A stretch of 64,000 bases of DNA, taken from assembly GCA_965285935.1 (NCBI GenBank), contig OZ260662.1, positions 70,742,001 to 70,806,000 of the forward strand, in the 5' to 3' direction. This DNA is from Ophelia neglecta. Its lineage: Eukaryota. The translations under genes were made by a program, and so were the position numbers. This document shows, in pieces, positions 10,401-61,900 of this stretch. The notes beneath the pieces are model-generated. The model ran no database searches. It saw only the letters and a list, made by a program, of their open reading frames with translations, and had not been told where the DNA came from. Numbering within the stretch: the first letter of the stretch is position 1; every line of letters begins with the position of its first letter.

Positions 10401-13400
10401 TGCACAATCAATATACACCCACACCGCTCAGATGCCACCTAGCAACTATACATGGAGATTAACTGTGTTTACTGGTGGGCTACTTCAGTCAGCTTCAAGA
10501 TATAACTAGTTCATAATTTGAGACAAGGCCTGTCTGATAATATATTTTGTTGAGCTTGTATGCTTTGCTGGGGTTACAAGCATGTTAATGTCCTAAGTAT
10601 TTAGCCTAGGAGGTACATGTAGATGTCTCAATATATTTGACAATACAAGAAAACACCAGCAGGTTGCTGGTTCGCTTCTGTTAATTGACAAGGGCATATG
10701 GGACTCTCAGAAGGATGAAATATCCATGATGACAAGTATAGGTACATATACATGATATAAGCCTAGGGTAACATCGTTAATTCAGCAATTACTTGTACAC
10801 ATTGCCTTTCCTCCTTATATATGTACATGTACACATAGGTTAGTTGAGCGAGGAGTCGCTTATGGGCCAAGAAGCCAGTGGGTCATTTGGTGACTGGGTG
10901 TTACTGGCAGTATTAGTTACCGTATTTCCCCTAATTTTCCGACCGAATTTTTTTACTCTAATTATTCGACCACCCCCTCAAGTCAAAAAACATAATTTCT
11001 AAAATGTTCCTAATAATTCGAACGCTTTTTTTCGTCAATTTTCTTCATTCCTGACTATCATACAGCTATTCATTATCGTCAACAATTTGTCATGAAAGCA
11101 AAACCAAAATTGAAGACCTAGTTTCGAACATTTTAGCTCCTTTATTATTATGTAAAATACATAAGTCAATCATACTTTTTCGACCAACCCCGATTTTCAA
11201 ATAAATAATTTAGATTATGTACCTAATTATCCGACCAAATTTGATCTTAATTAATTAATTGGTGGTCGGAAAATTAGGGGAAATACGGTAATTTTACACG
11301 GTCTACTATATATTCTTTAACTTGGGACTCAGAGACTTTTGGCAAATCATGGTAATGCTTGGAGTTGGCCACGAAATTTTTACTGGAAGTTTAGTTATGC
11401 AGCTGGAAATAATGTTTGGCATACAAATTATTCACCCTGTTCTTTGGAGGCTCCCTTTTTCCAGGTATCCATATGTCTCTTTTGCTCTCCTAGAGCTCTG
11501 TAAGCACAACCCCTCTCCCGGTTAGATAGACTCAATTAAAACTTGGACCAGCGAAATACAATGATGTATAACTGTATAGATTTTAAATAGCTTTATTAGA
11601 TGGGTATGAGAGAAGGAAATTTTCTTGATCAATGATTTTTACAGGTTTTACAGCCCTTCACATATCGCGTAGTGGGTGGTCTCCACGAAACCCTTGTTCA
11701 CAAGTGCTACATGCTCCTCCCAGACTGTGCGATGGATGGATTTCATTGGAACTTGTCACAGTGAATAAAACAAAACCCATGTGTTAATGTTTGTAAAGTT
11801 TACATGCTAAATATGGGCAAATGTTAATAGCATATTCAACGAAAAAAGGTTTCACAAAAACAAGAACCTCCAGTTGAATCTCAATACACACAATTGCATT
11901 TGATTGGTTCATATTTGATTAGCAGCTTAAGTTTTAAGTTTTTTTATGGTCCTTAGAATGTGGAGCATAAACTCCCCCTTCCCCTCAAGAAAAGATTTAG
12001 TGTGTATATAAATAGACACTGCATTGTCTGTCCATCCGTTATCAAGTGAGTTGAGGGATTCAAAATAAATCATGTAAACATAAAGAAACTAGTTTTCTTC
12101 TAAAAGTTCTCATTAAAATTAGAAATGGAAACAATGGTGACTATAAGCAATCATATAACAACCAATTATTAGTTATTTTGAGACAGTATGGTCAAATCAT
12201 AATCTCTTCATATAAAAATGTATGATTAATTATCCAGTGTTCCCTAGAAATGTAAAGAATGCAAATATAGCCACACATATTTATGTTTATAACTATTCAT
12301 TGGATTGAAATTGTGAACAATTAATGTTCATAAAAAGGGGCCATGAAATTCTACATTTTACTTGTAGTTGCTATTCCAACTTATATGTCCAAATGATCAC
12401 CTGCTTGTTGTTAGTTACTAGTATACATGTGCATTTACATTTACTTCCAATAATTGTCTACATCACCTTTATTAGTGCATTGGTTTTGTACATATAATAT
12501 AGAGAGGCAGTAGATGAAGCCCAAACATACTAGGAATATTAATTAGTTGGTGTAAATTACAGGGTACTAATTGGATGCCATACAATGATAATTATACATG
12601 TGATAATTTCTTTTATATATATACTCATGTGCATTGCATGTAGCACACAGTATATTGTACCTGTCAAATTAACATGGTCCCAAGGCACAGGTTAATTAGT
12701 AGAAAATGATAGGAAAGTCTTCAGCTTGGAGTTAAAGGTTATTACCTTTGTTATGAACAAATAACAGGAGAAACAATAATGTAATTGTGGTGCAGGTGTT
12801 TTGCACGTTAAACGGCATGTGCTAGAATTTGTAACAGAAAGTGCTACATTTGGTCATATCTGAAGCTGACAGTAATTAGAGGAATAATATTGTTCATCAT
12901 TAGTTTTCATTTCCACCTTATGTAGACAAGATTTTCCATCCATTTTTCAGCTGTTTGACCCATGTGTGATATTTGAAATCCTTCAAACATGTAACTGAAA
13001 ATTGGTATGGTTTGCGGAATCATTTCTCCTATTGAAAATCAGGGTTTTCTTTTTTCCAGCAATTTCCAATACTTTGCTCGGTGTGCCACAATAACACTGG
13101 GGTCTCCATGCACTTTAAATGGAGGGCTGTAGAGTCTGGTGTTATCGCTCATATTAATGCATTCACACATATTAACTCTTGAGGTAAAGGCACAATGGAG
13201 CCTGTGGCTTCTATAGGAAGATAGTCTAGATAGAACATATCAATGTGGCACATTGTAATGTAATGTTGAGAGTACAGCAGGTAACCGTGAGTGCTGTAAT
13301 GGTGTCCCTGGATTTAACATTGACTGAGACTTTTCTTTGAATCAGGTCCATGGCATGTCAGTCATTTTTGTACTTTATTAATTGGGGTTGGGTGCTGGGG

Positions 13401-28400: not shown

Positions 28401-31400
28401 TGTATGGGGTAAATGATGTTTCCAGCAGTTGTTCAAAATTTCCGTTATTACTAATGCAAATTGCAAAACTTCACTTTAAAGCAGTGCCATGTAAGATGAT
28501 TTTATGTCTTAATGGTAACATTATTATATGTATATGTTGATTTAACCTGCAAGAGACAACACTTTTAGTTATACCATTCTTGGACCTGGCATTTGGCGAG
28601 GTACACTGGCCTAGCAACTTGTTTAGAAAACTTGTATAGAAAAGGCTTTATGTTGCGTTAGACTGTTGTTTGTATATTACACAGCATTCTGTCAAAGCTG
28701 TACATATATGATTTACATATTTATACACTTCATTTGTGCTCACCCAGCCATAATTTTAAAGGTTACTAATTTATTTTGAAGATAAATGTGTGACTTTATG
28801 GTAACACAGTCCAATTATTTGAGTTAACCAAAGTGTGACACAATGTGTTGTGACCCTGCCTTGTTACCTTCAGGATAAATATCATCAATGTGGTGCCAAA
28901 TTCAAAAATGATTAGTGCTACTGTCCTTGTTGTCTTGGCAAGATCGAGCAAAGAATATTTCTGGTCTAATAATTGAAAAAATTGAATACTAAAATACCAT
29001 TGACCCTACTTTACAAGTTTGATGCAAAGTGTGCCATGTTTGACATGCTATAGGGTAGAGATGGGTAATTTTGCTCACTATGTGGATGTTTGACTTGAAG
29101 ACCGTTTAGGATTACTTTATTCCTGTTGAACCAAAATATAACTGTGTTAGACCTGTCCCTATGGTAACTCTCTTCATTATTATCTTCAGAAATATATTCT
29201 AGGTGCATTATTTTATGAGAAATTAATAAATATTTAAAGCCTCAGAAAATGCCTAAGTTTGCTCACTTTTTTCCAATTTTGCTCACCCCCGTTTTCAAGT
29301 TTGCTCACAGAGCAAAATTATGCACATGTTGAGCAAAATAAGACTAATTGGGTTCAAATTTGTTTGGGCAATACAATTAAACTCCTAGTATATGTGATTC
29401 AGAAATAAGACCTGCCTTCAATAATTTAGAATCAAATATATACAATTTATCCTGTGTGACCCAAATTCGTTGAAGGGCTTGCCATGTTTTCATTGTTCTG
29501 CACACACATATTTTCAGCTCACGAGGTGAGCAAATTTAGGCACTTACATTTCACACCATATGGGTGCTGGGCTTCAAAGCTGCTTAGAAGTATTTTATTC
29601 CAGCTGAACCTAAATGAAACTAGGTTAGACCTGTCCCTGATGTCACTCTCTTCACTATGATCCACAGAAATATTTACGAGGTGCATTATTTTATGAAAAA
29701 TTAATAAATCTGTCAGGTCTCTGGAAGTGCCTAAGTTTGCTCAATTCTTCTGATTCGGCTCACCCCTGTTTTCAATTTTGCTCACAAAGCAAAATTATGC
29801 AGTGGTTGAGCAAAATAAGACTACTTAGGTAAAATTTTGGTAATCCATTCAAATTAAACTTATAGTATTTGCACTGTAGAAATAAGACTTACCTCAAATA
29901 ACTTGAAATGTAAGATATAAAATGTATCATGTGTGACAAAATTCATTGAAGAATTAGCCATATTCAAGTCTTCAGCGTACACATATTCCAAACAGAAAAG
30001 GTGAGCAAATTTAGGCATTTCATTTCAAATTATAAGTATGATATTTACATAAAAAAGATATTAGGGCCTAAGTCCTGTTGTAATGAAATAAGTGTTAGGA
30101 TTATTTCAGGAATTTCACTCATGTTATAGATGTACGAACCTATGATTGATTTTAACATTAGTTTCATGTCCCAGTGGGTGGGTTTTATTCTTGCAGTTAA
30201 GAATAGAAATACATTATATTTGGATTCTTTTAACGCTTTGCATAGTTTAGGCCTCCTCGTATCTCCTGTTAGCTTTTGCCTTCGCCCTTTCATCTCCTAA
30301 CTGCCACCATGGCTCGCCTGGGCTTACTGACAGGGGTTATTATATCCGCGAAATGCGGATATTATGGAATCAGTAGCACCGCCGCCGCCGCCGATTTTAG
30401 TCGTTAACGCAATAACTCAAAAGCCATTTCATACATCTTATATGTTAGAAATAGTTAATAATAGTATGTTAGAAACGCATTTTCTGCAATTACACAAAAG
30501 ATATTTAATACATCTTTTTCAAATTTGACGCAGCAATAGACCTTATTGAGAGGAATAAATGGATTCATTCTAGTGAATTTCGGATAAATATTAATTAGGC
30601 AGAACAATTACTTTATTATGTCAAAAACAGATATTCTTTCACATATTCGAAAGTATAGATGATATTGGTTTGAAGTTTTGTGTTATGATTCATGTAATAA
30701 CTATATACAATCTGTGTAATAAGTTTACTAGTTAACTTTATTATTGACCTGAATAAAAATTAGTTTAGGTCGTTTTGCATTATTATTGAGGTCATATGGA
30801 ACCAACTTTATTAATGACTTGCATTGTTATTGAGGTCATATAGAACCAACATCAATCTGGTTAATAAGTTTACTAGTACCGTGTAATAAGTTTAATAGTT
30901 AACTTTATTAATGACCTGAAAAAAAATAGTAAATTAAGGTCGTTTTGCAATATTATTGACGTCATATGGAACCTACTAAAACACGTGTGACAAGTTAACT
31001 AGTTAACTTAATTAATGACCTGAACAAAAATTAGTTAAGGCTGTTATCTTTCCTGCCAACCATAAACTTCTCACTACTCCGCCTTATACCATGTTCACCA
31101 ATCGACTATTGCACGCATTCGCAGATATACCCCTTACTGTCCCCCCCCCCCCCACCCGAAAACTTGGCCTAGTTTCAACGATGTTCTTGACTCGTTCGTT
31201 GTGTGGGCGCATTTTAGGCTCACCTGAAACTATAAAATTTATTATCATAGCCTATGGTACATCATTATAAATGAAAAGTATAACACTGAAAAAAAACTGT
31301 TATACTTCACAACTTTTGCTTTTGAGAGTAAAATCGAAATTCAAGTGCTCACGCCCTGTGAGGACCTATTGTACATTGCTGCATGACAGGAAATTGAGAG

Positions 31401-37400: not shown

Positions 37401-40400
37401 TTGAGTTGCCATAGGCTGATGAACAATGGAAATTTGAATTTCTTGCCGGCATGGAAGGAAAACTAGTTTAATTTACATTTTAATTTGCAAATCTGTTTAT
37501 TATCTGCATAATTTCATAATCTTTTTAGGTATGCAATAGACTACCATGTTCACTCCTCAATAGGGTTCAAACCATATCACAGTAGCATTTTAAACCGATG
37601 GACTTACATATTTCTCCAGTTGAAACCCAAATCCTTAAAACCCAATATTAAACCACATCAAAATTTGGCCTTGGTGAACTAACAAACATGTGATATGGTA
37701 AAGATCAAAAGATCTCGGTTTTCCGTTAATCTGCATTTGAGTCCTTTGTTTTCACACTGCCCATTTACACATTTTGTGTGCTGCACCTCCATGATCAATA
37801 GATGTACAGTGTTGGTGGCCTGTGTGCCCTACAAAGACACTTTCACATCAATATATAGTTAAAAAAAGGTAGATGAACGGATCATTAATACTTCAATTGC
37901 CTTTGAAATGTTTCAAAGAAATGCTGTTGAATGACGTTTATCATATATTCCAAGAAGAAAAGCCAAGGCAGTGGTTTGACAGACTATGCATGTATATATG
38001 GAGGCTGGCTTAGCTAGTAAAAGGCATGACAAGGCACCTTCCAAAGAACTCCAACCTCTAATAATCTACCCCAACCACGTACCACTCACTTGGCCTTAAC
38101 CCTTAGTTTCTTTTTTCAACAAAAAACTTTTGAGGTTATTGGCATTCTCGTCAGGGTGCTGGTCATGATGAAGTGTGTGTATTTTGTCTTGATGTTCAAT
38201 ACAATACTTAGGAATTTAGCTTATACATGTCTACTGTACACATTTATGATAAATCCAATTCATTTATAATTTGTCCCTTAAAGCTGTGGCCGAGTAGTTA
38301 GGGTGTCCGCCTCGCAAGTGGGAGATCGGGGTTCGCTTCTCGATCGCGTCAAACCCTGCCAGGCGCCCGGTATTTTGGGGGTAGTATCAGGACTGGTCAA
38401 CCCGGTGTCAGTATAATGTGACTGGGTGGGGTTCTGTCTGGTGTCTAAGGCAGGTACTCCAGTGAGGCAGCACTCTAAAGAGGGCATTGAGGCCACAGTC
38501 ACAAGTAGGCACTGTGGCGATATGACCGATAAGTGTTGAAAGCCATGTAAAACCCCAAACAACACCAACAACAACAACAACCTAAAGCTGCACCTTATTA
38601 GTGTAGCCTACATAACAAGCTCATTATGCAAGGTCAAGACAACACTTATCCATTGTCAATATTAGTAAAATCAGTGCAGTTGGTTTAAGCTAAGTGATAG
38701 TAACATACATGTACTTGTACATCTGGGCATACTGAGTCTTACACTGTATTATTCACTTACAGTAACTATAACAGCCCACGTCAGTGGATGCTAAAGGAAT
38801 AAGTCAACTTTTTATTTAATTGCATACAGGTTTATTACTGGCGTAATATTTTCTTTCAATATTTTCAATAATGTCTTTATTTTATCGTGAAGACCTCTTC
38901 TTCTTCTCCACAAATATGTGTAAAATACATTCATCTTTTTTTCAATTTAATCATTCTATTTTATACTCATAAATATTACCCATGAATGAATATATGTTTC
39001 AAAGTTCATAGACTTCAATAAACTGCCTAGATATGCCCTATCTCTCCCCCCCCCCCCCCGGTAAAAATATTTTGTCAATAGAGTAGTTTAAATATAGTTG
39101 TGCAAAGGCACTATGTGGCAACAGGTGGAGACACTAGCTCAGTCAATTAGGGAAATGAAAACCACAAATGTCTGACACTTACGTCAGATATAAACACAGG
39201 AATGGCAGTTTTCATTAACAACATGGTCAAAATATAAACCAAGAACACTGCACACTGATTTTTGTAAGGTTTTATTAAATAGCTTTACCAATATTCAGCA
39301 AGGAAAAGCCACCTGGTGGCATATGCCATCTTATGCCATCAGGGTACCACCAACCTCTTGTACAGGGGGTCCAAATCATTGGTAAATCACCCTTCTCATG
39401 TTAAATAACAGATGCTGTCGTTTCTTTTTCATGGGTCAGTTTTCCTTAATCTGACAAATATGGTTTATGATGATAGTAGGCAACGGATTAAAAAAGTTTT
39501 TGGGGGCAGGATAAGGGAACGCATATATTATACCCGCGTTGTCTTCATCAAAAGTTTACTAAGTACAGGCTCCAAGTTATAATCTGGTGCTGACACCTGT
39601 AGACAAACTTGTTATAAGAGGGCTGAGGCTACTGCAATGGTTGTAGATTATTTTGGGTAAGATGCATACTTTCTTGCATATATATGAAAATGGTCTGTTT
39701 ATGGATATTTTTGGAGTTTTGGGAAATTTGAGTTTCTGTCTGGGGTGTATCCTTAATATATATAATGAATGACATGCTGATTATACATGGTGTAAATAAA
39801 GGTAGTTAATTCATGAAGGTTATTCATTAATCTAGTTTATAGTCTACCCTAATCTTTTTATTAATATGAAATAATATAATTTATTATTATGAAATAATAT
39901 AATAAGTTGAAATTGAAACAAACAGTTTTTACAGTTAAGCAATGAATGGCCTTTATTGTTAGATGTATGTATTTTATTGCCTCCAATGGGGAATTGTAAT
40001 AGTGGTATATAGCCTCCAGTCCATGATCTGCTAAGCACTACTTCATACATATTCTGGGTTACAAATAAACATGATACTACTTTTTTTGCATTTGGTTCTT
40101 AAATTGCTAAAGCAAAGAACAACTCTCCATTTGTGTGCTCCTAAAAGCTAGGGTGCAGGATTGATAAAAGAATTAAGGGACCCATCATCGTCAGTGGACA
40201 CTCAATGTGACTAAGAGTAATTGGGTCCATTATTCAGTCATTTCTTCAAGGTTACAGAAAGGATGAAAACGATCAGGCTTGATTTACTGCCTAGGTCATT
40301 TTGATCCATTTTTGCACCATGGAACTACAGCTAGATAATGTACCATAAATGATTTAAATCTTNNNNNNNNNNNNNNNNNNNNNNNNNNNNNNNNNNNNNN

Positions 40401-43400
40401 NNNNNNNNNNNNNNNNNNNNNNNNNNNNNNNNNNNNNNNNNNNNNNNNNNNNNNNNNNNNNNNNNNNNNNNNNNNNNNNNNNNNNNNNNNNNNNNNNNNN
40501 NNNNNNNNNNNNNNNNNNNNNNNNNNNNNNNNNNNNNNNNNNNNNNNNNNNNNNNNNNNNNNNNNNNNNNNNNCTGACAAAAATCAATGTTCATAGTTGA
40601 CTATGGCAATCCAGTGCAACTTCTTAAAGTGGGTGAATAATAGTAGTTTTAATAACATGGAAGTAGTATTGGTGAACTTATTTATCTCTATCTGAATCTT
40701 TATCTCTAACGCCATGGTTGTAAGTAGTTGGCTGCATTGCATTGAGCCTGTTGAATGTGACCACGACTAATCAAATATGATCACATACACATGATATAGA
40801 CACAAGTCAGAAGCAAATGAGCCATTACACCTTTTAATGTACAATAATGTCTTCAGTACACAGTGCAATTCACTGTGATTAAGATTGAATAAAAGGCTTT
40901 ATTGTTAGTCTTTTTTTTTTAATTATCTTGGAAAGTCTACATGTATCAATACCTTAGATGGACTATTAGGTTTATTGATTGTACTTTGATCATTATACAC
41001 CTCATTGAAGCGCCAGCTAATGAATGGCAAAGGCTGTCTGGACTATTGTGTACCTGACAGGCTGTTGAAAAACATCTTGTGTCATCCTTTGTATCACACA
41101 CAGCTATTTGGTATACATGTAAAGCCACAATATAAATATACATGTATAGTATGGATGGGGTGTTGAATTTTAAATATGATATTCACTCTATCCTGACAGT
41201 GCCAAGATTCTGTTAATTACTATTCAAGCTTCCTAACATTTTTTAGTTTTGACAATTACTAAACATAGGCATGTATATGGTTTACCCTAGGCATGTATTT
41301 TGGCTGAATAAAACATGCATAGGTCTGACTTTGAATGAAAGAAAATGGCTAAAATGAATGAAGGTCAATATTTTTTACTTTGCATTAGGCTGCCATATTG
41401 TGTGAATTGAGCCGGAGATAGTAGACAGGCTGCCTGTTAGTTTTTCCATTTGCGTAGCAGCGGGAGTTGCTACCTGGCACAATTAGGGGCTGAGAGAGGC
41501 GACAGGGGGACTCTCCAGTTGGATATTGAAGGTACTTGTAAGGAATGGCCTGACAATCACACTGGCGACAAAGCTCTACCTAGCCTAATCTGACCGGTGT
41601 GTCACTGCCAAGCTGCAGTGCCCGAATAAAAAGGGGACTTCATACAGGTGGTTTTGTGGGAAATTACCTGCCCTCTTTCAGCTGTCCCCACAGGCATTGC
41701 TGCTTCCTCTCTGAAATGATACTGGCAATGTAATTGCAGCAAATTGTCCTTCACAATGTGCGTGTGCCCAATTAGTTGAATTTGTTTCCTGGGCCCATCA
41801 TTACACTGCACATGGAGGGTGCTTTTCCCAAGTGCATGGGATTAGAACTGATTACAAATAAATAGGCTCGCCAAGACTCTTCCACACTCCTAGACTAGCT
41901 ATAAATCCAGAGTCTTGGAGCCTATCTGATTCAAAAGAAACTCTGAACATGAATTCCTAAGTCTACTTTGCTGTCATTCTGTCAACCATGATGGCAGCAT
42001 TGTACTTGTAGTACATGCACAAAGTAGACATTCCTGACTTTGTCTGTATCAAGACAATGTTGCTGCTCGCAATCCATGTTTGTCCATTACCTATGCTCAC
42101 CCTTGGGGCCTGAAACATGTTTAGGTAGCATTCCAATCTACCTGTCGGTAAAAGCCGCTCTTCCTTAACCTCTCCCATGTCCATTGCAATAGGGAATTTT
42201 GCCGATGGGTTCTCAGGTTTCCATGGTGATCACTGCTGAACCTTTGAGAGAATAATGTCATTTTATAAAATGTTTTTGTCGCTCAATCTCTAGTTACCCC
42301 GGAAGCAAAAAAAGGGTGGTGGTTTGTTCTTTAGCTTAATGCTTTTTCCTTACTTGCAGTCCTATCCATGTCAGTGAAATATCAGGATTTGTTTTTCAGA
42401 GCTAATACTTTGAATTGTTTGAAGGGAAGATTCTGAAAAATAATATCAGTGTCTGATTATTTAGAGAAGAATGCTTATATAGGTTATTTTTTCTTTGGTT
42501 CTTCTTACAAGAAAATAAAATAAATGAAAAAAAACTATCTTATAGGGTTTAAACATGTTTTATTTTTGCCTACTACATAAATTACAAGTTGTCTCTTAAT
42601 AATGTGATATTTCACATTTTGACTGGATTTGTCATTCCAATTCTTCATACGAGAAGCCTTTCAGTCTGATATTTCCAAATGAAATTACATTTTTGTAATG
42701 GACGTGTAACCCTAGCCATGTCATCCTGTAATTAAACCACATCTCAGTGGATTACCATGGACAGCATTTGCCATGGCACCTCCTACCCTCATTTCCTGTC
42801 AATGTCCATGTTTTGGTGGTTGGCTGATAGCATTGTGACTGTCACCAGGTGCAGCCTCCTCAAGCTTCATCTGCCAACTCCTCATCAGCCACTGCTAGCA
42901 GATAATTTTATTTTCTGAGAGGTTCTAGATTAGGTGAACAGCAGTGTAATGAAAAGAAAACTTGATTATGATTAATTACACATGGGAATTTATATTTTAT
43001 TTATTATATATATATTTTAGGAGTTGAAAAAAAATACTGATAATCAGTGCAACAACATGGCAAATTTGTATAAGGTATTTTGGACATTGCTATACAAGTG
43101 AAATTTTTTTATCAATCTTGAGTTTTACCAAGAAATAAATAAGAATAAATAGATAAGAATACTGCCGTAAAAATAAGCGTATCATCTGTCCTGTGATGAT
43201 GGAACATGCCATAATTAGCATTTTCAGTCTGACCTAATTGGCAAAATTTATTTTTTCTCCTTCCAAGCATTTGGTATCATCATGGAAATCCATATTCCTT
43301 GAGGGAAAATCATCTAGGCATTGATTACAACTCATGCTTATGTTTGCAGTATGCTGTACAATATCCTATAATTTCATTAATGCATGACATTTTGCAGGAA

Positions 43401-49400: not shown

Positions 49401-52400
49401 GATGTCATTTATGACAGGCAGTATTGTTACTCAATTTTTAGGCAATATTAGAGCATCAGAATTGCCTGACAAGGAAATTGAGAGGCTTACTGCATATGTA
49501 GACTCCATGCTGAGAACTATTAGTAGAATGGACAGCCGAGAATTGGATGAAATTGAGCAATACCTGGAATCTGAACAAGGTGATCACCATTTTAAAAACT
49601 AGGGAACATCTAAGTTAGGTTTTTTGTCTCTTAATATTTTTTACATCTTTCTGATTTCCTTCTAAAGCAATACTTTTGTAATCTGAATGCAAGACAATTG
49701 TGTAATGAGTTTTAATCATGAAACTTGTATCTTCTGTTAAGCAGATGTGAAGCTGCCAGAATTACACAAAGCTGTAAAAAAAGAACAAATGTCTTTCGAG
49801 TCCCTGAAAACTCCTGGCAGTGATTCCAAAATCAGTGTTGACATTGCTCCCCAGGAATATGGTACGTTATACTTTGTTTTGGGTGATAATAATTACTTGA
49901 GTGTATTGAAAGAGTTGGACATGTGTAACTGTTGTATACTTTTTCAAGTACAAGTATATCACATTTTACCATATATTTTTGCAGGACCACATTTTATTTC
50001 CCACTTAATTGTTGGTAGCTGTCCAAATATTCTTGTGTCGGTAGTCAACACACTTATTAAAATTCCCTCCTTTTTACCACTTTTGGACATCTAAATGTCT
50101 GATATGAGTTCTGAAAATTTCCACATGGTCAGTATTGACTGCACCCTATGTCCTCTGATTTAAAAAAAAAAATTCCCCCCTTTCTGCCTTTGGTGTAATT
50201 TTTGGCCAATTTACCTAGTCTTTGTTTTCTGATGAACCTTTGAGAATGACATTAAATGAAATCACTTGTACTGTGATGCCAGTAAAGGAAGAAAATGGTG
50301 GGAAAATTGTGAGAATAGCCATAATATATGAAATAAGCCTTCTGCAATGCATAAGTATAGGTCTACTTGGTAGGCTTGATTTGGTGTTGCTGGCTTGCTT
50401 GGTTTGTGCCATTTTCTGCAGCTATTCAAGTTTAGAAATGCACTGATTTTTTCATTTTTTGGCTGCTTTCCTGCATGACAGTGTGCCCACAGCTGCTGGT
50501 ATAATATACCTACAGGCCCCATTGACCCTGTGATATATATATATATATAAGCAGCATGTGGTTAGTACTTTGATCAATCAAACTAATCAATTTTTGTTTG
50601 TACAGGCATTTTTCCAGCCAAAATTATAGCTTTATCATGGCCGCTGTAGTAGATATAGGCTTATAGGTAAATTAAGTATCTGAAACTGTAAATGATTAGG
50701 CTGTATTGAACAGTATGGTTAAGATAAAAATAAAAACATGCTTGCAAAATCAAGGCAAACATAGAATTATTACGAATCAGCTGCCCTTGCCTGTGGTGGT
50801 TCTAGGTAACCAACTTTAATTATTTCACCTAACCCCTTCATAAGGTAAATTGGCTAAAATTTACACCAAGGGCAAATGGGAAAAGTTGTGATTTAAAATG
50901 TCAGTAATTAAAATTTGGTGACATATGAGGGTGTGATCAATTATGATCATGTTCAAATTTTCTGAAGTTGTATAAGCTATTTAGAAGTCCTCAAAAAGAA
51001 AAGGGAGGGGACCTTGGCAAGCGTTCTAACTAGTATTAACGAACAACAAACAGGAAAATTGATTTTTCAAAATTAACACAAATATATAATGTTGTACTCT
51101 CCTCGGTGCTGTGATGCTGAAATGTTGTACTCGGAAAAAAAAGGTTTGCAAACTTAATATGCAGTGCTTAACAACAATCCTTGACACAATATTAACCAAA
51201 TTTGATGCTTGGACTTTCAAATTCGGTTAAGTCCAGTCTCAACATTTCAATGTTATTATTGAAAATATGCTATGGGGTGAAGTTACCCTGTGAAGTGATG
51301 GGTATTAAGAATGCGGTACAGCTGTCCTTGGCATCTTTCTGTACCCATAATATATATAAAAGGATTGCTGAAAATCATAGAACGCTCTTACTTCAACTTA
51401 CTCATGTAGACAATTGAATTTATTGTCAGGAGATCCCTGCTCCCTTTAGGCCACTATTGATTTAATTACTGTACAAGGATTTTCAGACTGAAGTGACACA
51501 ATTAGTGTGAGAAAGGTGATAAATCCTAAACAAAGCAGACTGCCTATTCTAGCTCTCTCAAGTCTAGCCTGTACAAATTTACATCTTTAATGAAAGAATG
51601 CCTGCAAGAGAGAACTGCACACTGCCTTTTTTGTATATACAGATGGATTAGGAAAATATTTGTACTGACATTTCGTTTGTATATTGACCCTTGTATCAGG
51701 AAGGGGTCCCATGTATTTCTGTGCACTGAGGCTGCAATCTGACATTGTTAGCCTCAAAGATATTTAATAAATGTGTTTTTTTTTTCTGGAACACTGTCAC
51801 AAATATTTTGTACACTGTTACAACTGATAGCAGGGAATTTAGAAATTGACTTTTATAACATGTATTATACATTTATTTTTGGGTCCTATTTTCTGATTTA
51901 TATTTCTCCTACCTCTCAGTTGACCGTCTGAAAGATCCACATGACCACCATTTTGATGATGATATGAAACCAATTCCAACATCGAGGCCCAAGTATGACA
52001 GCGTCGCAGCTAATTACGCCTATCTGACTGTCAAACCTAAGTATGTCTGTCTTTATTATAAAGTCACCATACATGTAATGATATTGGAAAATGGTAATTT
52101 TTTGCAAGCAAATCTATCACAGTATAGTAGGGAAGGAGTCCTGAAATTTAAACCTGATGTATGGGCAAAATGTTTTATTGGTATCAATATTTCACATGTC
52201 TATCTTTTCCATTTTAGTACCGATGATCAAGAAGATGCTGTTTTGATTGTTGACACACTGGAAAGTCTTTTAGGGCTGCCTCTTGGGACTTTCTCTGATG
52301 TCAGGTAAACAGAAATTTCCAGTCTGTGAAACTTAAAATTTGTGTACATGCTAATTATGATTAAGGTTCACTTGTGACACCTGGTAATTTTTTAAGATAG

Positions 52401-55400
52401 GTTTAAAAAAAGAATTTTAGTGAATGTAGAATGTTTTAATATTGGGGCTGATAATATATCCTCTGTGCCACAGTCCAAAACTTGTATTTATATTTTACAT
52501 AATGAACAGTGGCCATTGATTTCCTAGCTGTTATATTTTGACAATTAAAATTAACTCACCTAATTTATTTTTTAAACATCTTCATTAAATTTCCAAAACA
52601 ATTAGTGCACAAAATGTATCTTTTAATTACATTACAAGGACAACTAGAGAGAATAAGTTCCAATATACTACAATACAGTATGATGTATGTATAGCATTGA
52701 AAATTTACATGTGATAACCTGTGATAACATTTGAAGGATGCAGGACAGTTCCCTAGCTAGAGACATCTCTCTTAATTCACCCAACCTGCAATACAATTCG
52801 CCATCTGGTGGGCATCGCAGAACTACAATCGCGCAATGCATTGCGGGAAAAAAGTTGACCAAAACAGTAGGCGTACCCAAGCTGTCATAAACATTGCATG
52901 GCGTCTTACATGGTCTGCTGAGATCGTCGCGGTATAACGTTATTTTGAGGTTACAAACGAATGAAAGGAAGATGGTGTTTATCTGCGAGGCAGCAGAGTG
53001 CTTCTCCCATAGCAGAAAAATTAACCATCTGGACAAGTATCCTTGGATGGCAGAAATATCTTGGGTTAAATGGGCCCGAGACGACCCAGCAGCCGTGGCA
53101 AGATGGCGGCGCCTGGTACGAAGAGAAGGCAAATCGTCGAAGGAAAACAGCATGATCGTGGACAAATTAAATATAAACAAAAGATCTAGACTGTGTTCAA
53201 GGCACTTTGACCCAGAACAATTGAACACTTATCGAGGAGTCGCCATCTGAGATCCCAAATACTTCGCGTGGAATAACTGGGGACAGCCTGTCAGGCCACG
53301 AGCGGTGTCAGCCCTGAGAAAGCTACACGCCTCCCGAATGTTGACAGATGTCAAACTGCGCGGCAGACTGCAAAAGTAACTCGCGAAAAGTGGTCGACAA
53401 GGAAGTCCAAAAACCATAATTCTGCGATGCCCACCAGATGGCGAATGGTATTGCAGGTTGGGTCAATTGGTCCAGGTGTTTGAGGACAGATCCCCAGGTC
53501 TAGGTGTTTAGGACAGTTCCCCGGTCTAGGTGTTTAGGACAGTTCCCGGGTCTAGATATTTAGGACAATTCCCCAGTCTAGGTTTTAAGGACAGCTCCCT
53601 GGGTCTAGTTGTTTAGGACAGTTCTCTGGGTCTAGGTGTTTAGGACAGCTCTCTAGGTTTAGGTGTTTAGGACAGCTCCCTGGGTCTAGGTGCTTAGGAC
53701 AGCTCCCTGGGTCTAGGTGTTTAGGACAGCTCCATGGGTCTAGGTGTTTAGGACAGCTTCCCGGGTCTAGGTGTTTAGGACAGTTCTCTGGGTCTAGGTG
53801 TTTAGGACAGTTCTCTGGGTCTAGGTGTTTAGGACAGATCCCCGGGTCTAGGTGTTTAGGACAGCTCCCTGGGTCTAGCTGTGTATGGCTATTTCTAAGC
53901 CTGCAATGGTTTATCCATATGGTTTCACAAGTCCTTTATTATTCCCAGCTCGGGTCATGGCTGGAAATGCCCTGTACAGAACACCATGATTCTACATGCC
54001 CAGGCCATGTTCGAATGTGCAACCACTGTGATGTACCGAATGACCCTTTTATGACTTGAGCAAATTGGAGCTGTCAAACACGTGCAGTCCTAAACAATTG
54101 TGTCCTGTCTTAATACCCAACTACACCAGCAGTCCAATAACAAAAAAACAAACATTGACATAGTTACAGCTCAACAACAATCAGTATAGTAAAGGCACAT
54201 CAACATCAAGTGATAATCTCCCTGCATGAAAAAGAACTGGTCATTTCCAAATGAACACCAAACATACACTGTACATGTATTAGAGGGAAGGCTGCCAATC
54301 TTCAGTCTCCAAGCAGTAGATTACATATGTGATCATCGGCTGTTAATCCAAAATATAAGAAATCAGAGCATGGGCTTTATACAGTATAAACAGTCGAAAA
54401 TCTACCCAGCATGCAGAAGAGAGGGCACATAAAGGCTTTATCAGCAAAGTACAGCGGGAACCCAGCCCGAGGTAAGAAGAGAACGTCCTATCCAACCACC
54501 AGTGACCTGCACATAATCAAGGGGGGGGGGGGGGGGAAGCATAGTGTCAGCATGGGTTCTATAGACAAGGCTTGTTACCAGCAAATTGCCATTAATGCTA
54601 ACAGACTTGCAGAATTGTTACAATGACAGCTTGCTAGAAGATTTGGCAATTTTGGATTTCTCCAAAGGATGCAACGTGGGGTCGCCCTGGAATCTTGCTG
54701 AGAAACCAAGTCATTATAAAATAGCATGGAGTCCTGGCTGGATGGGTAGAAGGATTTTTGGCACAACAGGCCAGAAAGTTATAGTGGATGTCCTATCTTC
54801 TTCTACTGTCCCATTACCCTCAGGAGTGCCACAAGGCACCTGCCTTGGTCCGGGTCCCATACACTTTCTTTGTTACATTTATGAAATTGAGGACATGAAA
54901 CTCATTATTTGCAGTTAATATACTCTTAATAGCTAGTTCGAAACAAAAAAGATCACCAAATTTTACAAGAAGACTTATGAACATTAATTTCTATTCCATA
55001 GAAAGATTTATTATGTGAGATTCCTGGGGAAATAAAATGCTACACTTCTACTAAAGTCTAAAAACATGCATCCAGGATGATCAGTAGGAATAAGAACGAA
55101 ACTGAAATTGTGATTGGCATGATTAGGGGACTGGGGTGGGAGCTATTGGAGGAAAGAAGGAAACAAACAGACTGTTTCTTATGTACCAAATTTTAAATTG
55201 ACTTATTCAGATTCAAGTCCAGGAAGATCTTAAGCAGGGATGGAGAGAGTGCTACATTCATATCAAAGCAAATTTCCACCCCTGTCAACATTGATTTTAC
55301 TCAAAAACAATAAGAATTGAAATAATGTTCCCACAGAGGCTATATCTGCTGATTTACTAAAGGCTTTAATAAAAGGCTTGCAACAAAACAGTTCTGGTGT

Positions 55401-58400: not shown

Positions 58401-58963
58401 TGTCTAAAAAGTACTAAAAGCACAACTTGAAAGAGAATATGATGAACACCTTGATCACAAGAGCAGAGTGGCTGAGATGAACACCAATATGATAATAAGT
58501 TAATTAATGCTTCTTTGTTTGATTCAGGCTCATTTTGCTGCTGAGTAATTAGACAGGTTGTTGCCAGCATGTCTCATTAATTCCAGTACAATAAAATCTG
58601 CAGCTATCATCCAGCTTGTTAATATCTCCAGTTCCCCTCAGGTGTTTCATCTTCAGATGCTCCCTCGGCCTCTCCTTACCTGTTACATCCATTAGTCCCT
58701 ACCTGTTACATCCATTGTTATAATTAATAAATGCCCAACAACATTATACCTGTATCATGGACTACAAAGATACAAACTGTATATCAGATCTATTCAAACA
58801 GAATTGAAGCTGTAATGTTATCCAAGCAATGTGATGATTGATATATATTTTGAATCATGCTATATAAAGATGTCATTTTTCAGGGTGGAGAATGGCTATG
58901 TGAACTTCAAGGTGGAGAAGAACCCCAATCACCTGAATGGTTCAGCAGTGGCTGTTCTAGCAT
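1319..58963 (+). CDS. PTPRN: IA-2/phogrin (PTPRN/PTPRN2-like) receptor-type tyrosine phosphatase, 5' part; join(1319..1421,25090..25140,43575..44375,47687..47734,48123..48182,49442..49579,49745..49861,51920..52040,52218..52304,58884..58963); continues 3'
   Basis: The spliced translation is open throughout. It gives a signal peptide, then GCRFSSVVCSWDEECVDDRLFGNCQ...LKRLEGEITRLLGEGFTWDNLYTQ (RESP18-homology pattern GCxF...C...C..D..FG.CQ and G(F/L)TW..xYTQ of the IA-2 family). Later it gives YAYLTVKP...LESLLGLPLGTFSDVRVENGYVNFKVEKNPNHLNGSAVA (IA-2 SEA-like ectodomain pattern). All introns are GT-AG with matching phases. Family recognised from memory of the motifs, not by search. Confidence 0.9.
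2971..3157. mobile_element. Tc1/mariner (Tigger-like) MITE remnant
   Basis: Right end CAGGTTTCACTG-TA; degenerate left end ...aaaacctg; repeated internal GGTGGYC/CTGGTC motifs. Related fragments occur at about 27807-27898 and 57500-57661. Confidence 0.5.
3290..4200 (-). mobile_element. Degraded LINE (L2/CR1-group) reverse transcriptase relic
   Basis: The minus strand reads KAFNTVDHNILLSKL (~4080-4120), ITCGVPQASIFGLLLFLICIHDM...LFLYVDVS (~3865-3985; GVPQGSxLGP and YADD motifs) and ANARFKFLNRK (~3565-3600), with frameshifts. Confidence 0.8.
4205..4316 (+). mobile_element. Possible 5'-truncated SINE 3' tail adjoining or inserted in the LINE relic
   Basis: Ends in aaaccccaaaaaccaaatccaatcc, resembling the tail of the SINE at 38.5 kb; locally CpG-containing. 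Confidence 0.3.
5570..5937. repeat. 23/46-bp minisatellite, array 1
   Basis: Alternating CAGCTCAAAATGTGGCTCATGAT and CAGCTCACAGTGGGGCTCAGGAC units. Confidence 0.95.
7428..7934. repeat. 23/46-bp minisatellite, array 2
   Basis: Same units as array 1; longer array. Confidence 0.95.
8976..9235. mobile_element. Truncated copy (left part) of the pogo-like MITE
   Basis: Starts TA-CCGTATTTCCCCTAATTTTCCGACC; matches 10920-11180, then breaks off at a T-run. Confidence 0.9.
9372..9878. repeat. 23/46-bp minisatellite, array 3
   Basis: Essentially identical to array 2 at an offset of 1944 nt. Confidence 0.95.
10920..11288. mobile_element. 369-bp Tc1/mariner (pogo-like) MITE, complete
   Basis: Perfect 25-bp TIRs (CCGTATTTCCCCTAATTTTCCGACC / GGTCGGAAAATTAGGGGAAATACGG) and a TA target duplication, confirmed by the empty site gtattagtTAattttacacgg at ~6933-6953. 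Confidence 0.95.
14780..15572 (+). mobile_element. Non-autonomous Helitron/Helentron-type (HINE/pearl-like) element, older copy
   Basis: Two ~151-bp tandem monomers (ctatggctgtgycaaatttgaaaaa at ~14863 and ~15014). The 3' part is homologous to 31040-31173 and ends in poly-C...GGCCTAGTTT. The 5' boundary is uncertain. Confidence 0.6.
22060..22350. repeat. ~30-bp degenerate minisatellite (ctggtatccacacccattttggt...)
   Basis: About 9 recurrences of ggtatccaMac-like cores; this explains the repetitive WYP ORFs in the ORF track. Confidence 0.85.
25090..25140 (+). CDS. PTPRN: IA-2 exon 2 (51 nt, GCRFSSVVCSWDEECVD; Cys-rich RESP18-homology N-terminus)
   Basis: Strong acceptor tactttttcttttgcag| and donor G|GTAAGT; phase 1-1; supplies the three Cys that precede FGNCQ in exon 3. 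Confidence 0.9.
29053..32037. mobile_element. ~3-kb non-autonomous TIR element (pogo/Tc1-mariner-like)
   Basis: 25-bp TIRs GGGTAGAGATGGGTAATTTTGCTCA (29053-29077) and TGAGCAAAATTACCCGTCACTACCC (32013-32037), 2 mismatches, each flanked by TA. Internal ~478-bp tandem duplication (gttagacctgtccct at 29146 and 29624) and many TTTGCTCA/TGAGCAAA motifs. No transposase ORF. Confidence 0.85.
30337..31173 (+). mobile_element. Helentron-associated (HINE/pearl-like) element nested in the 3-kb TIR element
   Basis: 5' hairpin ATATCCGC-gaaat-GCGGATAT (30342-30362), then (CCG)5, a satellite-like core and internal direct repeats. Subterminal IR pair TATATCCGCGAA (30341-30352) / TTCGCAGATATA (31118-31129); CTAGT end before TT. 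Confidence 0.72.
33760..33803. repeat. Imperfect (GAT)n microsatellite
   Basis: atgatgatgatgttgatgatgatgtgatgatggtgatgatgatg. Confidence 0.85.
34577..34696. repeat. 57-bp direct duplication (period 63)
   Basis: cagaaatttaaacaataataaaatacacctcttgaatttgaccttttcctatttatt occurs at 34577 and 34640. Confidence 0.9.
36324..36804. mobile_element. ~480-bp non-autonomous TIR element (P-like or hAT-like)
   Basis: 29-bp inverted repeats CAGAGATGTGTATACCCAGAGATTGGAAT and ATTCCAATCTCTGGGTGTATACATCTCTG (2 mismatches); flanks cactaac/cacaaac (7-bp near-duplication); CpG-rich interior. Confidence 0.75.
38287..38580 (+). mobile_element. tRNA-derived SINE
   Basis: A-box-like TGGCCGAGTAG and B-box-like GGTTCGCTTCT in a tRNA-like head; GC-rich body; (CAA)n tail; flanking direct repeat TAAAGCTG (38279-38286 and 38583-38590). 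Confidence 0.88.
40363..40573. other. Assembly gap (211 N) in intron 2
   Basis: Run of N. Confidence 1.
43575..44375 (+). CDS. PTPRN: IA-2 exon 3 (801 nt; rest of RESP18-homology domain plus acidic pro-region)
   Basis: Core of the 306-aa ORF 43496..44416; acceptor gcttttcttttcag|AT, donor AGTG|GTATGT; DRLFGNCQ...GFTWDNLYTQ motif. Confidence 0.92.
47687..47734 (+). CDS. PTPRN: IA-2 exon 4 (48 nt, GMQLPVPIAESEDKDT)
   Basis: Acceptor ttctaacag|, donor A|GTAAGT; phase 1-1; open frame. No homology support. Confidence 0.68.
48123..48182 (+). CDS. PTPRN: IA-2 exon 5 (60 nt, IPAYVAMTPKDAKLLGDLLQ)
   Basis: Acceptor gattttttccag|, donor AAG|GTAGAT; phase 1-1; coding-like composition. Confidence 0.72.
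49442..49579 (+). CDS. PTPRN: IA-2 exon 6 (138 nt, GNIRASELPDKEIERLTAYVDSMLRTISRMDSRELDEIEQYLESEQ)
   Basis: Within ORF 49360..49602; acceptor caatttttag|, donor AAG|GTGATC; phase 1-1; amphipathic helical, protein-like sequence. Confidence 0.78.
49745..49861 (+). CDS. PTPRN: IA-2 exon 7 (117 nt, DVKLPELHKAVKKEQ...APQEY; contains a KK candidate convertase site)
   Basis: Overlaps ORF 49747..50094; acceptor ...ttaagcag|, donor G|GTACGT; phase 1-1. Confidence 0.78.
51920..52040 (+). CDS. PTPRN: IA-2 exon 8 (121 nt, VDRLKDPHDHHFDDDMKPIPTSRPKYDSVAANYAYLTVKP; start of SEA-like domain)
   Basis: Acceptor ttctcctacctctcag|, donor AA|GTATGT; phase 1-2; YAYLTV corresponds to the YGYIVT strand of IA-2. 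Confidence 0.85.
52218..52304 (+). CDS. PTPRN: IA-2 exon 9 (87 nt, NTDDQEDAVLIVDTLESLLGLPLGTFSDVR)
   Basis: Acceptor cttttccattttag|, donor CAG|GTAAAC; phase 2-2; SEA-like helix and F..(I/V) motif. Confidence 0.85.
52777..53465. mobile_element. ~690-bp TIR mini-transposon carrying a THAP ORF (possibly ISL2EU/Harbinger-related)
   Basis: 52-bp inverted repeats 52774-52825 and 53417-53468 with 3 mismatches. The symmetric AATT outer ends are compatible with an AT target duplication. CpG-rich. Superfamily assignment is tentative. Confidence 0.88.
52972..53379 (+). pseudogene. THAP zinc-finger ORF (135 codons) with one in-frame TGA at 53248-53250
   Basis: MVFICEAAEC...KW...RWRRLVRR...SRLCSRHFDP matches the C2CH THAP signature (Cx4C, W, CxxHF). 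The frame continues after the TGA as DPKYFAWNNWGQPVRPRAVSALRKLHASRMLTDVKLRGRLQK*. Confidence 0.8.
53470..53878. repeat. 27-bp minisatellite (GGGTCTAGGTGTTTAGGACAGCTCCCT), about 15 units
   Basis: Head-to-tail repeats with a conserved TCTAGGTGTTTAGGACAG core and a variable pyrimidine-rich remainder. Confidence 0.95.
54560..55483 (+). mobile_element. Degraded LINE (CR1/L2-group) RT and 3' end
   Basis: AILDFSK (LDFSKAFD motif) and QKVIVD...SGVPQGTCLGP..FLCYI in ORF 54586..54918; LGWELLEERRK...LMYQIL at ~55125-55200; short ccagaa repeat tail at ~55472-55483; frameshifts and stops. Confidence 0.85.
56655..57210. mobile_element. Degenerate MITE
   Basis: Inverted pair GATTCTCAGTCAC (56662-56674) / GTGCCTGAGAATC (57189-57201) enclosing A-runs followed by CCGCC/CCACC motifs. 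Confidence 0.45.
57500..57661. mobile_element. Right end of a Tigger-like MITE
   Basis: Repeated (A)GGTGGCCCT motifs ending in GCAGGAACCACTG-TA. Confidence 0.5.
58884..58963 (+). CDS. PTPRN: IA-2 exon 10 (80 nt, VENGYVNFKVEKNPNHLNGSAVAVLA)
   Basis: Acceptor catttttcag|, donor T|GTAAGT; phase 2-1; aligns with the vertebrate V.gp.lTFr...N..NlS...V pattern, including an NGS sequon. Confidence 0.87.
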
Positions 58964-61900
58964 GTAAGTTATTGAAAAAAAAAAATCATCGTTTGCGAGT
59001 TTTAAAAATAGTATAATCATTATTATATTAGTTAAAAAAACATAGCTATCAGTCATGTTTCGTTATTTAGAACTAACTACTCACAGAATTACCTTCCGGA
59101 GTCTGAGGGTTTGTGATTTGTAAATGGAATATATCCTAGCCATAGCAGTATATACATGTACATATAGCAGCATTGATGGTCTGGCTGCTATTACCTTACA
59201 AGACGCAAAGCCATTAATATTCTGAAACCACCTGTTGAATTTGCACCTACACAACTGTATGGATGTACATCTAGATGTATATACCTTGCCCTGACAAGCT
59301 TATCATAGATATTTTGTGATTATGAAATTGCCACCTGCCGATCAATAATGAGATATGCCTGCTGAAAGTCTACACTCATTCATTCAAATGTGTATGTCAG
59401 AAATGTCACAATGGTTTCTTCAGCAGCACATTCAGACAGCTTGAGTCTAAATCGGCTTTTATCCTAGAATTTATGCGGCATGCTGCTTTATTGCTTATGC
59501 TGATTTGGGTATGGGCATCAGTATAAGGCTGGCCATGTCACATGGATGGCTGCCACCTGAGAAAATGATGGGTCAGCATCTTGAAGAAATTGATTTCTTC
59601 ATGCTCCTAATCTTCTTGAGGGTATTTTTTGATGCTGGCTAGATCTTGAGTAGCATTAGCCCCAGGTAATAACCAATGTGAATTTTGATAATGGGATACA
59701 TGGAAATCCTAGTCATTGTAATTACAGCATGACTTCCAAAAAAATGCCCAGGTATGGTATATTGTTCTTACTCTAAGATTTTGTACCACTTTGTTGATTA
59801 AGTAAATTTATTTATATAAATAATTAAGCCCGATGTATTTGGTCAGCTGGGATTGGTGATATTTGTAAGAAGGACTGCAGGTGCACAAGTTTTCTTTGGC
59901 ATCACCTGTCTTTTCCTGAGATTGAGTCTTTGTGCGCTGTAGGCTGTTGTGCCCAATAAGGAGCCACCAATTCCCCCTTGAAGCTGATATTGGAGCATGC
60001 TAAGACTGATGGGCAGCAGTCCAGATTAAGCCATCAGCAGAGGGATGCTACTTTACAAGATAGTGTCTTCTGCTTCAGCAAGAATGAGCTTGTAATTAAA
60101 TTCTGGGGAGTTGTTAAGCTTGCAAAGCGCAGATTTAATCCTGTTTTTCTAATCATTTTTTCTCCCAGGAATACTTTGCATAGTGATTTGAGCAGTTGCT
60201 GGCAAATTGTTTCGTAGCCTTTGAGTAACTGATTGCAGAAAATCAAAAGAACTTTCTAATGGCCCTACAGATGTATAATCTGAAAAAAATTATGCTGTTA
60301 ATATATGTAAGTGGCTGATGGAGGCTGGGTCGGTGTGATTAACATAGGTTTTTTTTTCTACCTGTATGAAAAGCTTCACTTCTGAGTGGGCATGCCAGAC
60401 GACAAAAATGAACTAGACTCAAGGTAGTGTGCTCAAGGTGAGTTTTAGCAGTAGTCTTGAGAGACAAAGACAAACTTCATTGTAGAACTAAGCTGATGTG
60501 GAGATGGGGTTATCATGTGGAAAAGTCCTTGTACAGCCGCATCTTTTCAAAGGTGCTCTCCAAGTTTTCTATTCCGTTAAATGCAAAGCATAATGAAAAA
60601 TGATGGGCATTGCCTTCATGTGAAGGTCAAAGGAAGCTTTTAGATTTACTGGCAGTCTTTGTACGGGCAGTAATGAGGGTTCTAGTTAGAATCCTCAGGC
60701 CTAACTCACTCTTTCATGAAATAGAAAAGAGGGAACCGATGCCCCAACCTTTGGCAACAAGCAGTCTCCCATGTGTGTCCTCTCCACAAGTGGACCCGGT
60801 CACTGCGGAGGTATCCCGATCGCTGAGGCCTTGAAGGTGGACCGAGTAGTCCTGCACTGCAGACTGGAAGTAATGAGGTTTGCTGTATTTGACTGCAGGT
60901 GGGAGAGAATTCTCCAGAGCTGAACGCATTAGAAGTGATTCTCTGGTAAAGGTCAAGGACCTTGTGGGGTTTCCACTTGAACACTACTACTGATTCCTGC
61001 TGTGATGAGATGGCACTTTGCTTGGAGACCAATTAATATTGAATTCCTTCTCCTGGAAAATATCACCTGTGTTAAAGGCACATAATTGAATGAGGTAGAA
61101 TTTATCAGTTGGTGGAAGACCACGGCACCAGTTTGTCACATTTACCCCTAGTAATCATTAGGCATTGAAAATAGAAAAAAAATCATTTTTTTCAACTTCA
61201 ATAAAAAATACAACTTAGCAGATTTAATCTTTAGATTGGATAAACAAATTTATCTTCTCTAACACTGCATTTGATAAGTTAGTGCTGATTTAACACATTT
61301 ATTTAAAATATTATGTTTAAAAGCATTTCCAATAGAAACAAGCTAGACGACAGAAAGCCATTGCTAAGAGCAAAATTCACCCAAAGCTGCCCTTGTCTTG
61401 GCATTGCTTGGAGGGACATTTGATAGGAATGTGATTTGGACAGACTAATGCCTGACCTTTCAGCCTCCAGGAAAGGCGATGGCTTCTTCTTGTGCATCAC
61501 ACTTCCCAATTCTGTGTGGCAACCCTGGTAAGGAAGGCTCTTGTAGTAACTCATGCTAACCTGGCACTAATCTTATTTTCTGCGCATCAGTAGGCCCACT
61601 GCACCTTTCAACAAAATCATATTTCAAGCATCGCCATCCTACACCTGATCGAATATCAACGGGTATGAAAGCATTCATCACAGAGGCCATCATTGAAGCT
61701 TTCTGCACTCCTAATACAATGTTCTCAACATGATGTTTGACACATGTTTTGCTGTATGTATACATGTATATAACCCTGAAATTAATATGAAATCAATAAT
61801 TTACCAAGATGTATATTTCCAGTGACACTGTGTCTTTTCTTTCCATTTGACTTGCCACTGCTAATAGGAGCTTGAGTCCCTCTGAAAAAGAAAAAAGTCA

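Follow-up and report, generated by a model that had tools for sequence, protein, structure and literature searches.

A short THAP-coding element in an IA-2/PTPRN-like intron of Ophelia neglecta: a probable internal-deletion derivative of an ISL2EU transposon

We analysed a window of 64,000 nucleotides from the genome of Ophelia neglecta (contig OZ260662.1, positions 70,742,001 to 70,806,000 of the forward strand); all coordinates given here refer to this window. A short element bounded by terminal inverted repeats (TIRs) lies in an intron of a host gene, between an upstream exon at 52219..52305 (+) and a downstream exon at 58873..58992 (+). Both exons were mapped from the relative P0104, which carries Receptor_IA-2 and Y_phosphatase domains and whose exons fall on either side of the element; on these grounds, the host gene is IA-2/PTPRN-like, in agreement with the IA-2 intron named in a preliminary description of this DNA. 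Only seven coding exons of the host gene were detected upstream, so the intron number given in the preliminary description, 9, is provisional.

The surroundings are rich in repeats. The right end of the element abuts a 27-bp minisatellite of 15.4 copies (53469..53882), which is host sequence and lies outside the element. One stretch resembling a minisatellite unit is present at 52742-52760, just before the left end; with this stretch on the left and the array on the right, the element sits at the edge of the array. A stop-to-stop frame at 54565-54918 (-) resembles a degraded LINE reverse-transcriptase fragment. Further away lie a 1.95-kb tandem duplication (7288-9236 and 9232-11180, 99.9% identity) and a third, older copy of it (5578-6943, 93%), all of which hold a 23/46-bp satellite; the duplication at 7288-11180 is either a recent event or an assembly artefact. 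Two adjoining copies of about 478 bp at 29076-30027 (76% identity) form an old tandem duplication, and a run of about 211 N, an assembly gap, occupies ~40305-40520 in an intron of the host gene.

The inverted arms of the element span 52774-52825 and 53417-53468: they measure 52 nt each, differ by 3 mismatches, and are spaced by 591 nt (blastn E 2e-17), as the preliminary description had reported (52-bp TIRs, 3 mismatches, about 590 bp enclosed). Both element ends read AATT, at 52774-77 and 53465-68. Other copies, recovered as contigs of sequencing reads, match the window copy out to 52773/52774 on the left and 53468 on the right; beyond these points, the flanks are divergent and unrelated. ISL2EU transposons, members of the PHIS superfamily, insert at A|AT|T with duplication of the AT (PMC4482050; ISL2EU is further covered in PMC4122938). 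If this rule applies, the outer AATT would be target-site sequence and the TIRs would be trimmed to 49 bp. The element would then occupy 52777..53465 (+, 689 bp), with a left TIR at 52777..52825 (+) and a right TIR at 53417..53465 (-); a flanking A and one AT duplication would lie at 52774..52776, and the other AT duplication with a flanking T at 53466..53468, both target sites being placed by the sequence, the limits shared with other copies, and the A|AT|T rule. We infer the length of the AT duplication, because no clean empty site occurs among the contigs; judged from the letters alone, a 4-bp AATT duplication, or none, would look the same. The element termini are TG..CA under the AT reading, and the start is GA under the AATT reading. 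The element has 48% GC and a CpG observed/expected ratio of 0.93, against 37% and 0.30 for the 64-kb window; the higher CpG ratio indicates that the insertion is fairly young. Sequence comparison of the window detected no second copy within its 64 kb. The element contains no AATAAA, and one ATTAAA is located in the middle of its open reading frame.

This frame runs from ATG 52972 to TAA 53379 and is interrupted by a single TGA at codon 93 (53248-53250), directly before DPKYF, just as the preliminary description stated. The THAP domain proposed there was recovered by the Pfam profile PF05485 (25.1 bits; cut-off 23.9), and a profile built from 31 relatives matches human THAP2, THAP11, and THAP1 (E 3e-11 to 2e-8). 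The window copy retains the residues C5, C10, C75, H78, W45, and F79; a PKYF box, located after the TGA in this copy, occupies the place of AVPTIF. An AlphaFold model of the frame, with the TGA read as X, has a mean pLDDT of 85. In Foldseek, this model returned four weak rows, all of them THAP domains and none at E<=0.001; the ESM Atlas returned only generic THAP clusters.

Homology places the frame within a much larger protein. Residues 1-123 correspond to the N-terminus of a transposase with THAP, HTH_Tnp_4, and DDE_Tnp_4 domains, at ~45-60% identity to relatives of 570-620 aa; in the top matches, the homology ends at about residue 123. Long relatives that combine all 3 domains include P0018 (Acanthaster), P0022 (Saccoglossus), and P0023, at 573-619 aa; the closest named relative is P0017 (Ptychodera), at 60% identity. 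These relatives were gathered in a near-length search (7 of 20 candidates), a longer search (7 of 8000 scored), and a full library (90). We therefore annotate 52972..53340 (+) as the first ~123 codons of an ISL2EU transposase, comprising the THAP C2CH finger, the PKYF box, and a WNNWG extension. The preliminary description saw no DDE transposase in the element; in line with this, tblastn with 7 long relatives gave a strong match to the THAP part only, among the matches listed. Two relatives on metagenome contigs, L001 and L006, carry a spliced transposase and a convergent YqaJ ORF (YqaJ E 1e-21 and 7e-17). This is the layout of ISL2EU and supports the assignment to that group; the role of the second ORF in ISL2EU is not known (PMC4482050). 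TIRs were not found in L001-L006, which stop short of the element ends. Taken together, the THAP-transposase homology, the YqaJ ORF of the relatives, and the AATT ends make membership in ISL2EU (PHIS), as an internally deleted derivative, well supported, and they bear out the ISL2EU relation raised in the preliminary description.

Other placements were considered and set aside. Spy elements make no duplication, target AAATTT, and lack THAP; here THAP is encoded, and joining the two flanks gives TTAATTGG. The ends show neither an 8-bp nor a TTAA duplication, the latter being the target duplication of Kolobok, and the relatives carry DDE_Tnp_4; P elements duplicate 8 bp (PMC7776569). The search for relatives in viral contigs gave 0 of 437 candidate stretches by protein and none by TIR pattern. 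One weak GTDB match among 61 candidates (L008, 39% over 37 aa), and the equally weak L007, were dismissed as chance or irrelevant.

The frame appears to be cut inside the first exon of the transposase gene. In the relatives, exon 1 continues to a splice donor by way of a VPEIGxEV-like motif, which is located 41-71 residues past WNNWG; the window frame terminates 35 residues past WNNWG and has neither the motif nor the exon end. We tried the frame tail, SRKVVDKEVQKP, as a counterpart of the motif, and found no support (score 3.3, against 7.5-18.8 for true members; the motif block was obtained from 15 of 19 relatives). By homology, then, the frame is the N-terminus of a transposase and no stand-alone gene, and its ATG is the native start of that transposase. 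The preliminary argument that a start of its own inside the TIRs marks an independent unit fails. Short relatives of 112-206 aa (P0001-P0016) could be mistaken for THAP-only elements: most stop at an IGRK/ISGK-like stretch, which in L006 is a GTAAG splice donor, so most are probably gene calls of exon 1.

Information on the family comes from the contigs of three runs of one sample, in which 179, 192, and 182 contigs aligned to the window. Some contigs are identical to the window at the left junction; the sample may therefore be the window's own source and does not provide independent support. Depth is 12-27 on unique flank and reaches thousands on the element in the three runs. The family resolves into 2 paths, one at ~100-300 times flank depth (the ~200x path) and a second at ~20-30 times (the ~20x path), which is the closer of the two to the window copy. 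Summed contig depth is a rough guide and gives no copy number; read in this way, the depths show roughly that the element belongs to a high-copy mobile family. The mobility claimed in the preliminary description is thus upheld by high-depth contigs and by other copies that share both ends. A second haplotype in the runs omits 52628-53482, that is, the element and about 150 bp of left flank, and nearby shows 8 base differences and an 18-nt insertion over 223 bp; the insertion site is therefore polymorphic, although this haplotype is no clean empty site.

The window copy bears several lesions. The premature TGA (53248..53250, +) contrasts with GGA in other copies: base 53248 is G in 9/9, 9/9, and 6/6 contigs of the three runs, and all aligned protein relatives have a sense residue at this position. 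Since every aligned contig reads GGA, the TGA is private or rare, the weaker term being kept because contigs drop rare variants. It is thus a mutation of the window copy, as had been proposed; its proposed origin, from CGA by CpG deamination, is ruled out, since the change from GGA is a transversion. An Ala at 53074..53076 (+) replaces the nearly invariant THAP Pro35 and is private to the window copy. The A-run at 53372..53375 (+) is one base longer than in the ~20x path, which creates the TAA at 53377-79. With one A fewer, the ~20x path stays open until it meets the right TIR, whose inner three bases (53417-19) are the stop codon of the family frame, TAG in all contigs aligned to the window and TAA in the window copy. 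The TAA at 53377 is therefore a property of the window copy, and the stop inside the TIRs loses its force as a sign of a separate unit. Compared over 231 bases with the ~20x path, which is its nearest, the window copy shows 5 base differences in addition to the TGA and the extra A; the six variant rows that set it apart from this path comprise 4 synonymous changes, Pro35Ala, and the stop. Given the nonsense codon, the frameshift, and the Pro-to-Ala change, the window copy cannot make a complete THAP domain and is a dead member of its family.

The contigs also reveal how copies of the family differ at the right of the frame. Depth at 53316-53376 falls to 384, 535, and 169, lower than even the ~20x path (570, 731, and 246). 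Past 53354, one contig departs from the window sequence for 143 nt; a second contig, coming from dissimilar sequence, joins the window sequence at 53353. Loose contig ends of this kind, one contig each in X2 and X3, point to a probable deletion junction at 53353..53354, in transposase exon 1 (codon 128), with a 2-base overlap of both sides; the stretch that follows, 53353..53416, would be the right subterminal segment of the parent, whose matching end in relatives lies upstream of the convergent YqaJ gene. Two low-depth contigs instead connect 53309-11 to 53380-86 by way of 7 or 16 intervening letters and look like one junction, one base apart. This junction coincides with the place where cover of the ~200x path stops and resumes, so that this path probably belongs to the shorter type. 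There are at least 2 junction types, 53353/54 and 53309-11 to 53380-86, tallied from the loose-end and piece rows listed, among which no high-depth joint occurs. One of the short-junction contigs (X2 only) reads in frame up to the stop at the TIR edge, an in-frame difference of 60 nt separating it from the ~20x path; the other (all three runs) has a one-base shift and meets no stop within the TIR. Deletions that break the frame occur in low-depth copies, for instance from 53212 to 53249 with 5 letters between.

Neither high-depth path has an indel in codons 1-112. Between the ~200x path and the window-copy type, 15 differences were counted, of which 9 are synonymous (expected, 21-26% synonymous; P 0.001-0.006); the difference at 53228 has no firm assignment, and leaving it out gives 9/14. 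Variants were classed by hand from depths, with 21 rows in codons 1-93 among 40 of 81 variant rows. In the tail, 2 of the 2 listed differences between the paths are synonymous in the frame that ends at the TIR-edge stop. Selection on autonomous parents before the deletions would explain this bias equally well. The preliminary description had held that decaying copies with heterogeneous breakpoints would indicate an ordinary internal deletion; this is partly borne out, since at least 2 types of breakpoint exist and frameshifting deletions occur in other copies.

We consider it likely that the element is an ordinary non-autonomous derivative of an ISL2EU (PHIS) transposon, produced by internal deletion, and that the window copy is decaying. 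The parent would have comprised a multi-exon THAP-HTH-DDE transposase on the plus strand and a convergent YqaJ nuclease gene, an arrangement present in the relatives and presumed for this family. A deletion would have begun within transposase exon 1, at about codon 128, and ended some 110 bp short of the right end; judging from homology and junction contigs, what survived was the two TIRs, along with the 5' leader and the beginning of the THAP-coding region. Such short copies could have been cut and pasted in trans by the parent transposase into AATT sites and, as the rough depths suggest, multiplied to hundreds. The THAP frame would be a passenger, open in the family paths because a functional gene gave rise to their founders, and decay would set in once a copy has inserted. 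Short derivatives that arise through microhomology and become more numerous than their parent have been described (PMC3814204, PMC12393704). Against this account stand the absence of indels from codons 1-112 in the high-depth paths, the largely synonymous differences (9/15), the X2 contig that keeps its frame to the TIR-edge stop, and termini that read TG..CA rather than the usual GG. Part of the depth evidence would also suit an improbable variant, in which the abundant paths are longer, autonomous or intermediate elements, the window copy arose from one of them by a deletion that is rare or unique, and a THAP-only family barely exists: cover of 53316-53376 lies under that of even the ~20x path, the contig ends at 53353/53354 lead into other sequence, and among the contigs listed none is shown spanning the junction of the window copy. 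About 200 near-identical full-length transposon copies would, however, be unusual; the short junction of the two low-depth contigs at the ~200x cover gap suggests a short path, and the mechanism overlaps with that of an ordinary deletion derivative.

In another reading, that of a KP-like repressor family, which we regard as unlikely, short copies with the promoter and an unbroken THAP frame would be transcribed and produce a THAP protein of ~130-150 aa; the product would occupy transposase sites and damp ISL2EU activity, selection on host or element would favour such copies, and the window copy would be a dead member of the family. The anatomy fits the 2 criteria given for P-element repressors, an interrupted translation and the presence of the DNA-binding domain (PMC12393704); both apply to the family paths and not to the window copy, whose stop falls inside THAP. 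Both junction types, at codons ~113 and ~128, lie just past the conserved THAP block, the family frame stops at the TIR edge with one short junction in frame 60 nt away from the ~20x path, the synonymous bias extends to the tail (9/15 and 2/2), and the read-through model, with its mean pLDDT of 85, finds only THAP domains in its four weak Foldseek rows. Several points speak against it: selection on two autonomous parents would also give a synonymous bias; the short-junction contig seen in all three runs is one base out, with no stop within the element; among low-depth copies, deletions disrupt the frame; the tail has no detectable exon-1 homology (3.3 vs 7.5-18.8); and the element lacks AATAAA. 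Preferential mobilisation, described for deleted P copies, suffices to explain the abundance, and the study that describes it leaves room for repression as well (PMC12393704). THAP domains also occur in host genes and in the P and Kolobok superfamilies, and L002-L005 may be host genes; still, a domesticated THAP gene or a P or Kolobok element is scarcely credible here, given the TIRs, the very high family depth, the absence from the other haplotype, the private lesions, and, for P and Kolobok, the lack of an 8-bp or TTAA duplication at the element ends.

With ISL2EU, the element shares the THAP domain that opens a transposase of the THAP-HTH_Tnp_4-DDE_Tnp_4 type, an A|AT|T target, an animal host, a 49-bp TIR within the range of 6-259 bp, and relatives with a convergent YqaJ ORF; unlike ISL2EU, it is only 689 bp long, has no DDE or YqaJ coding sequence, and ends in TG..CA, where ISL2EU TIRs usually start with GG (PMC4482050). 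KP and other internally deleted P elements similarly keep their ends and the N-terminal THAP, lose the catalytic part, and reach high copy number (PMC7776569, PMC12393704). They belong to the P superfamily, however, and the 207-aa protein encoded by KP has been demonstrated to bind DNA and to repress, whereas the element described here is known from sequence and its window copy is broken inside THAP. The Gnome, Elf, and Goblin MITEs, derived from Ozma, offer a third parallel, since a single type of parent gave rise to several families that are short and abundant and have different junctions; they differ in their Tc1/mariner parent and in microhomologies of 6-8 bp, against an apparent 2-bp overlap and a whole DNA-binding domain in the present case (PMC3814204). 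In the titles and abstract openings covered, with Repbase Reports and most subscription papers outside that scope, no THAP-only ISL2EU derivative was found. A Drosophila MITE, Vege, is reported to carry THAP.

As most likely read, the element adds to the non-autonomous ISL2EU families an abundant one whose TG..CA ends are unusual; it is useful for repeat annotation and shows that a PHIS element has recently been active in the host animal. Were the repressor reading true, truncated THAP proteins would self-regulate in a second superfamily, a parallel to KP outside P elements, and the family would provide a short natural pair of THAP and binding site for ISL2EU studies.

The TIRs carry one further sequence feature. 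In each TIR, 12 bases match exactly the core of the CTCF consensus published for human (PMC6746451): 52800..52811 (-) in the left TIR and 53431..53442 (+) in the right TIR. The window contains 3 exact matches, against 0.08 expected, the third at 39308-39319 (-). The TIR pair is divergent and points outward; both are candidate sites by sequence, against a human consensus. A bolder proposal, which we hold to be unlikely, would join these observations: an ISL2EU lineage may on more than one occasion have made THAP-only mini-elements with a frame open to a TIR-edge stop, one of which, at about 200 copies, would be a selected KP-like regulator that scatters pairs of CTCF-like sites.

Some minor observations concern the relatives. 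L006 has a one-mismatch match to the CTCF core at 125-136, 130 bp upstream of its transposase ATG. P0003, P0008, and P0009 are near-identical THAP-only predictions of 112 aa on contigs of ~1 kb and end soon past WNNWG; they possibly represent a THAP-only element in another species. In L002-L005 (ORF starts 193, 157, 718, and 928), a stretch resembling a splice acceptor stands just before the ATG, and the exon-1 ends are similar across the four contigs; these are possibly host genes, that is, a domesticated ISL2EU transposase gene.
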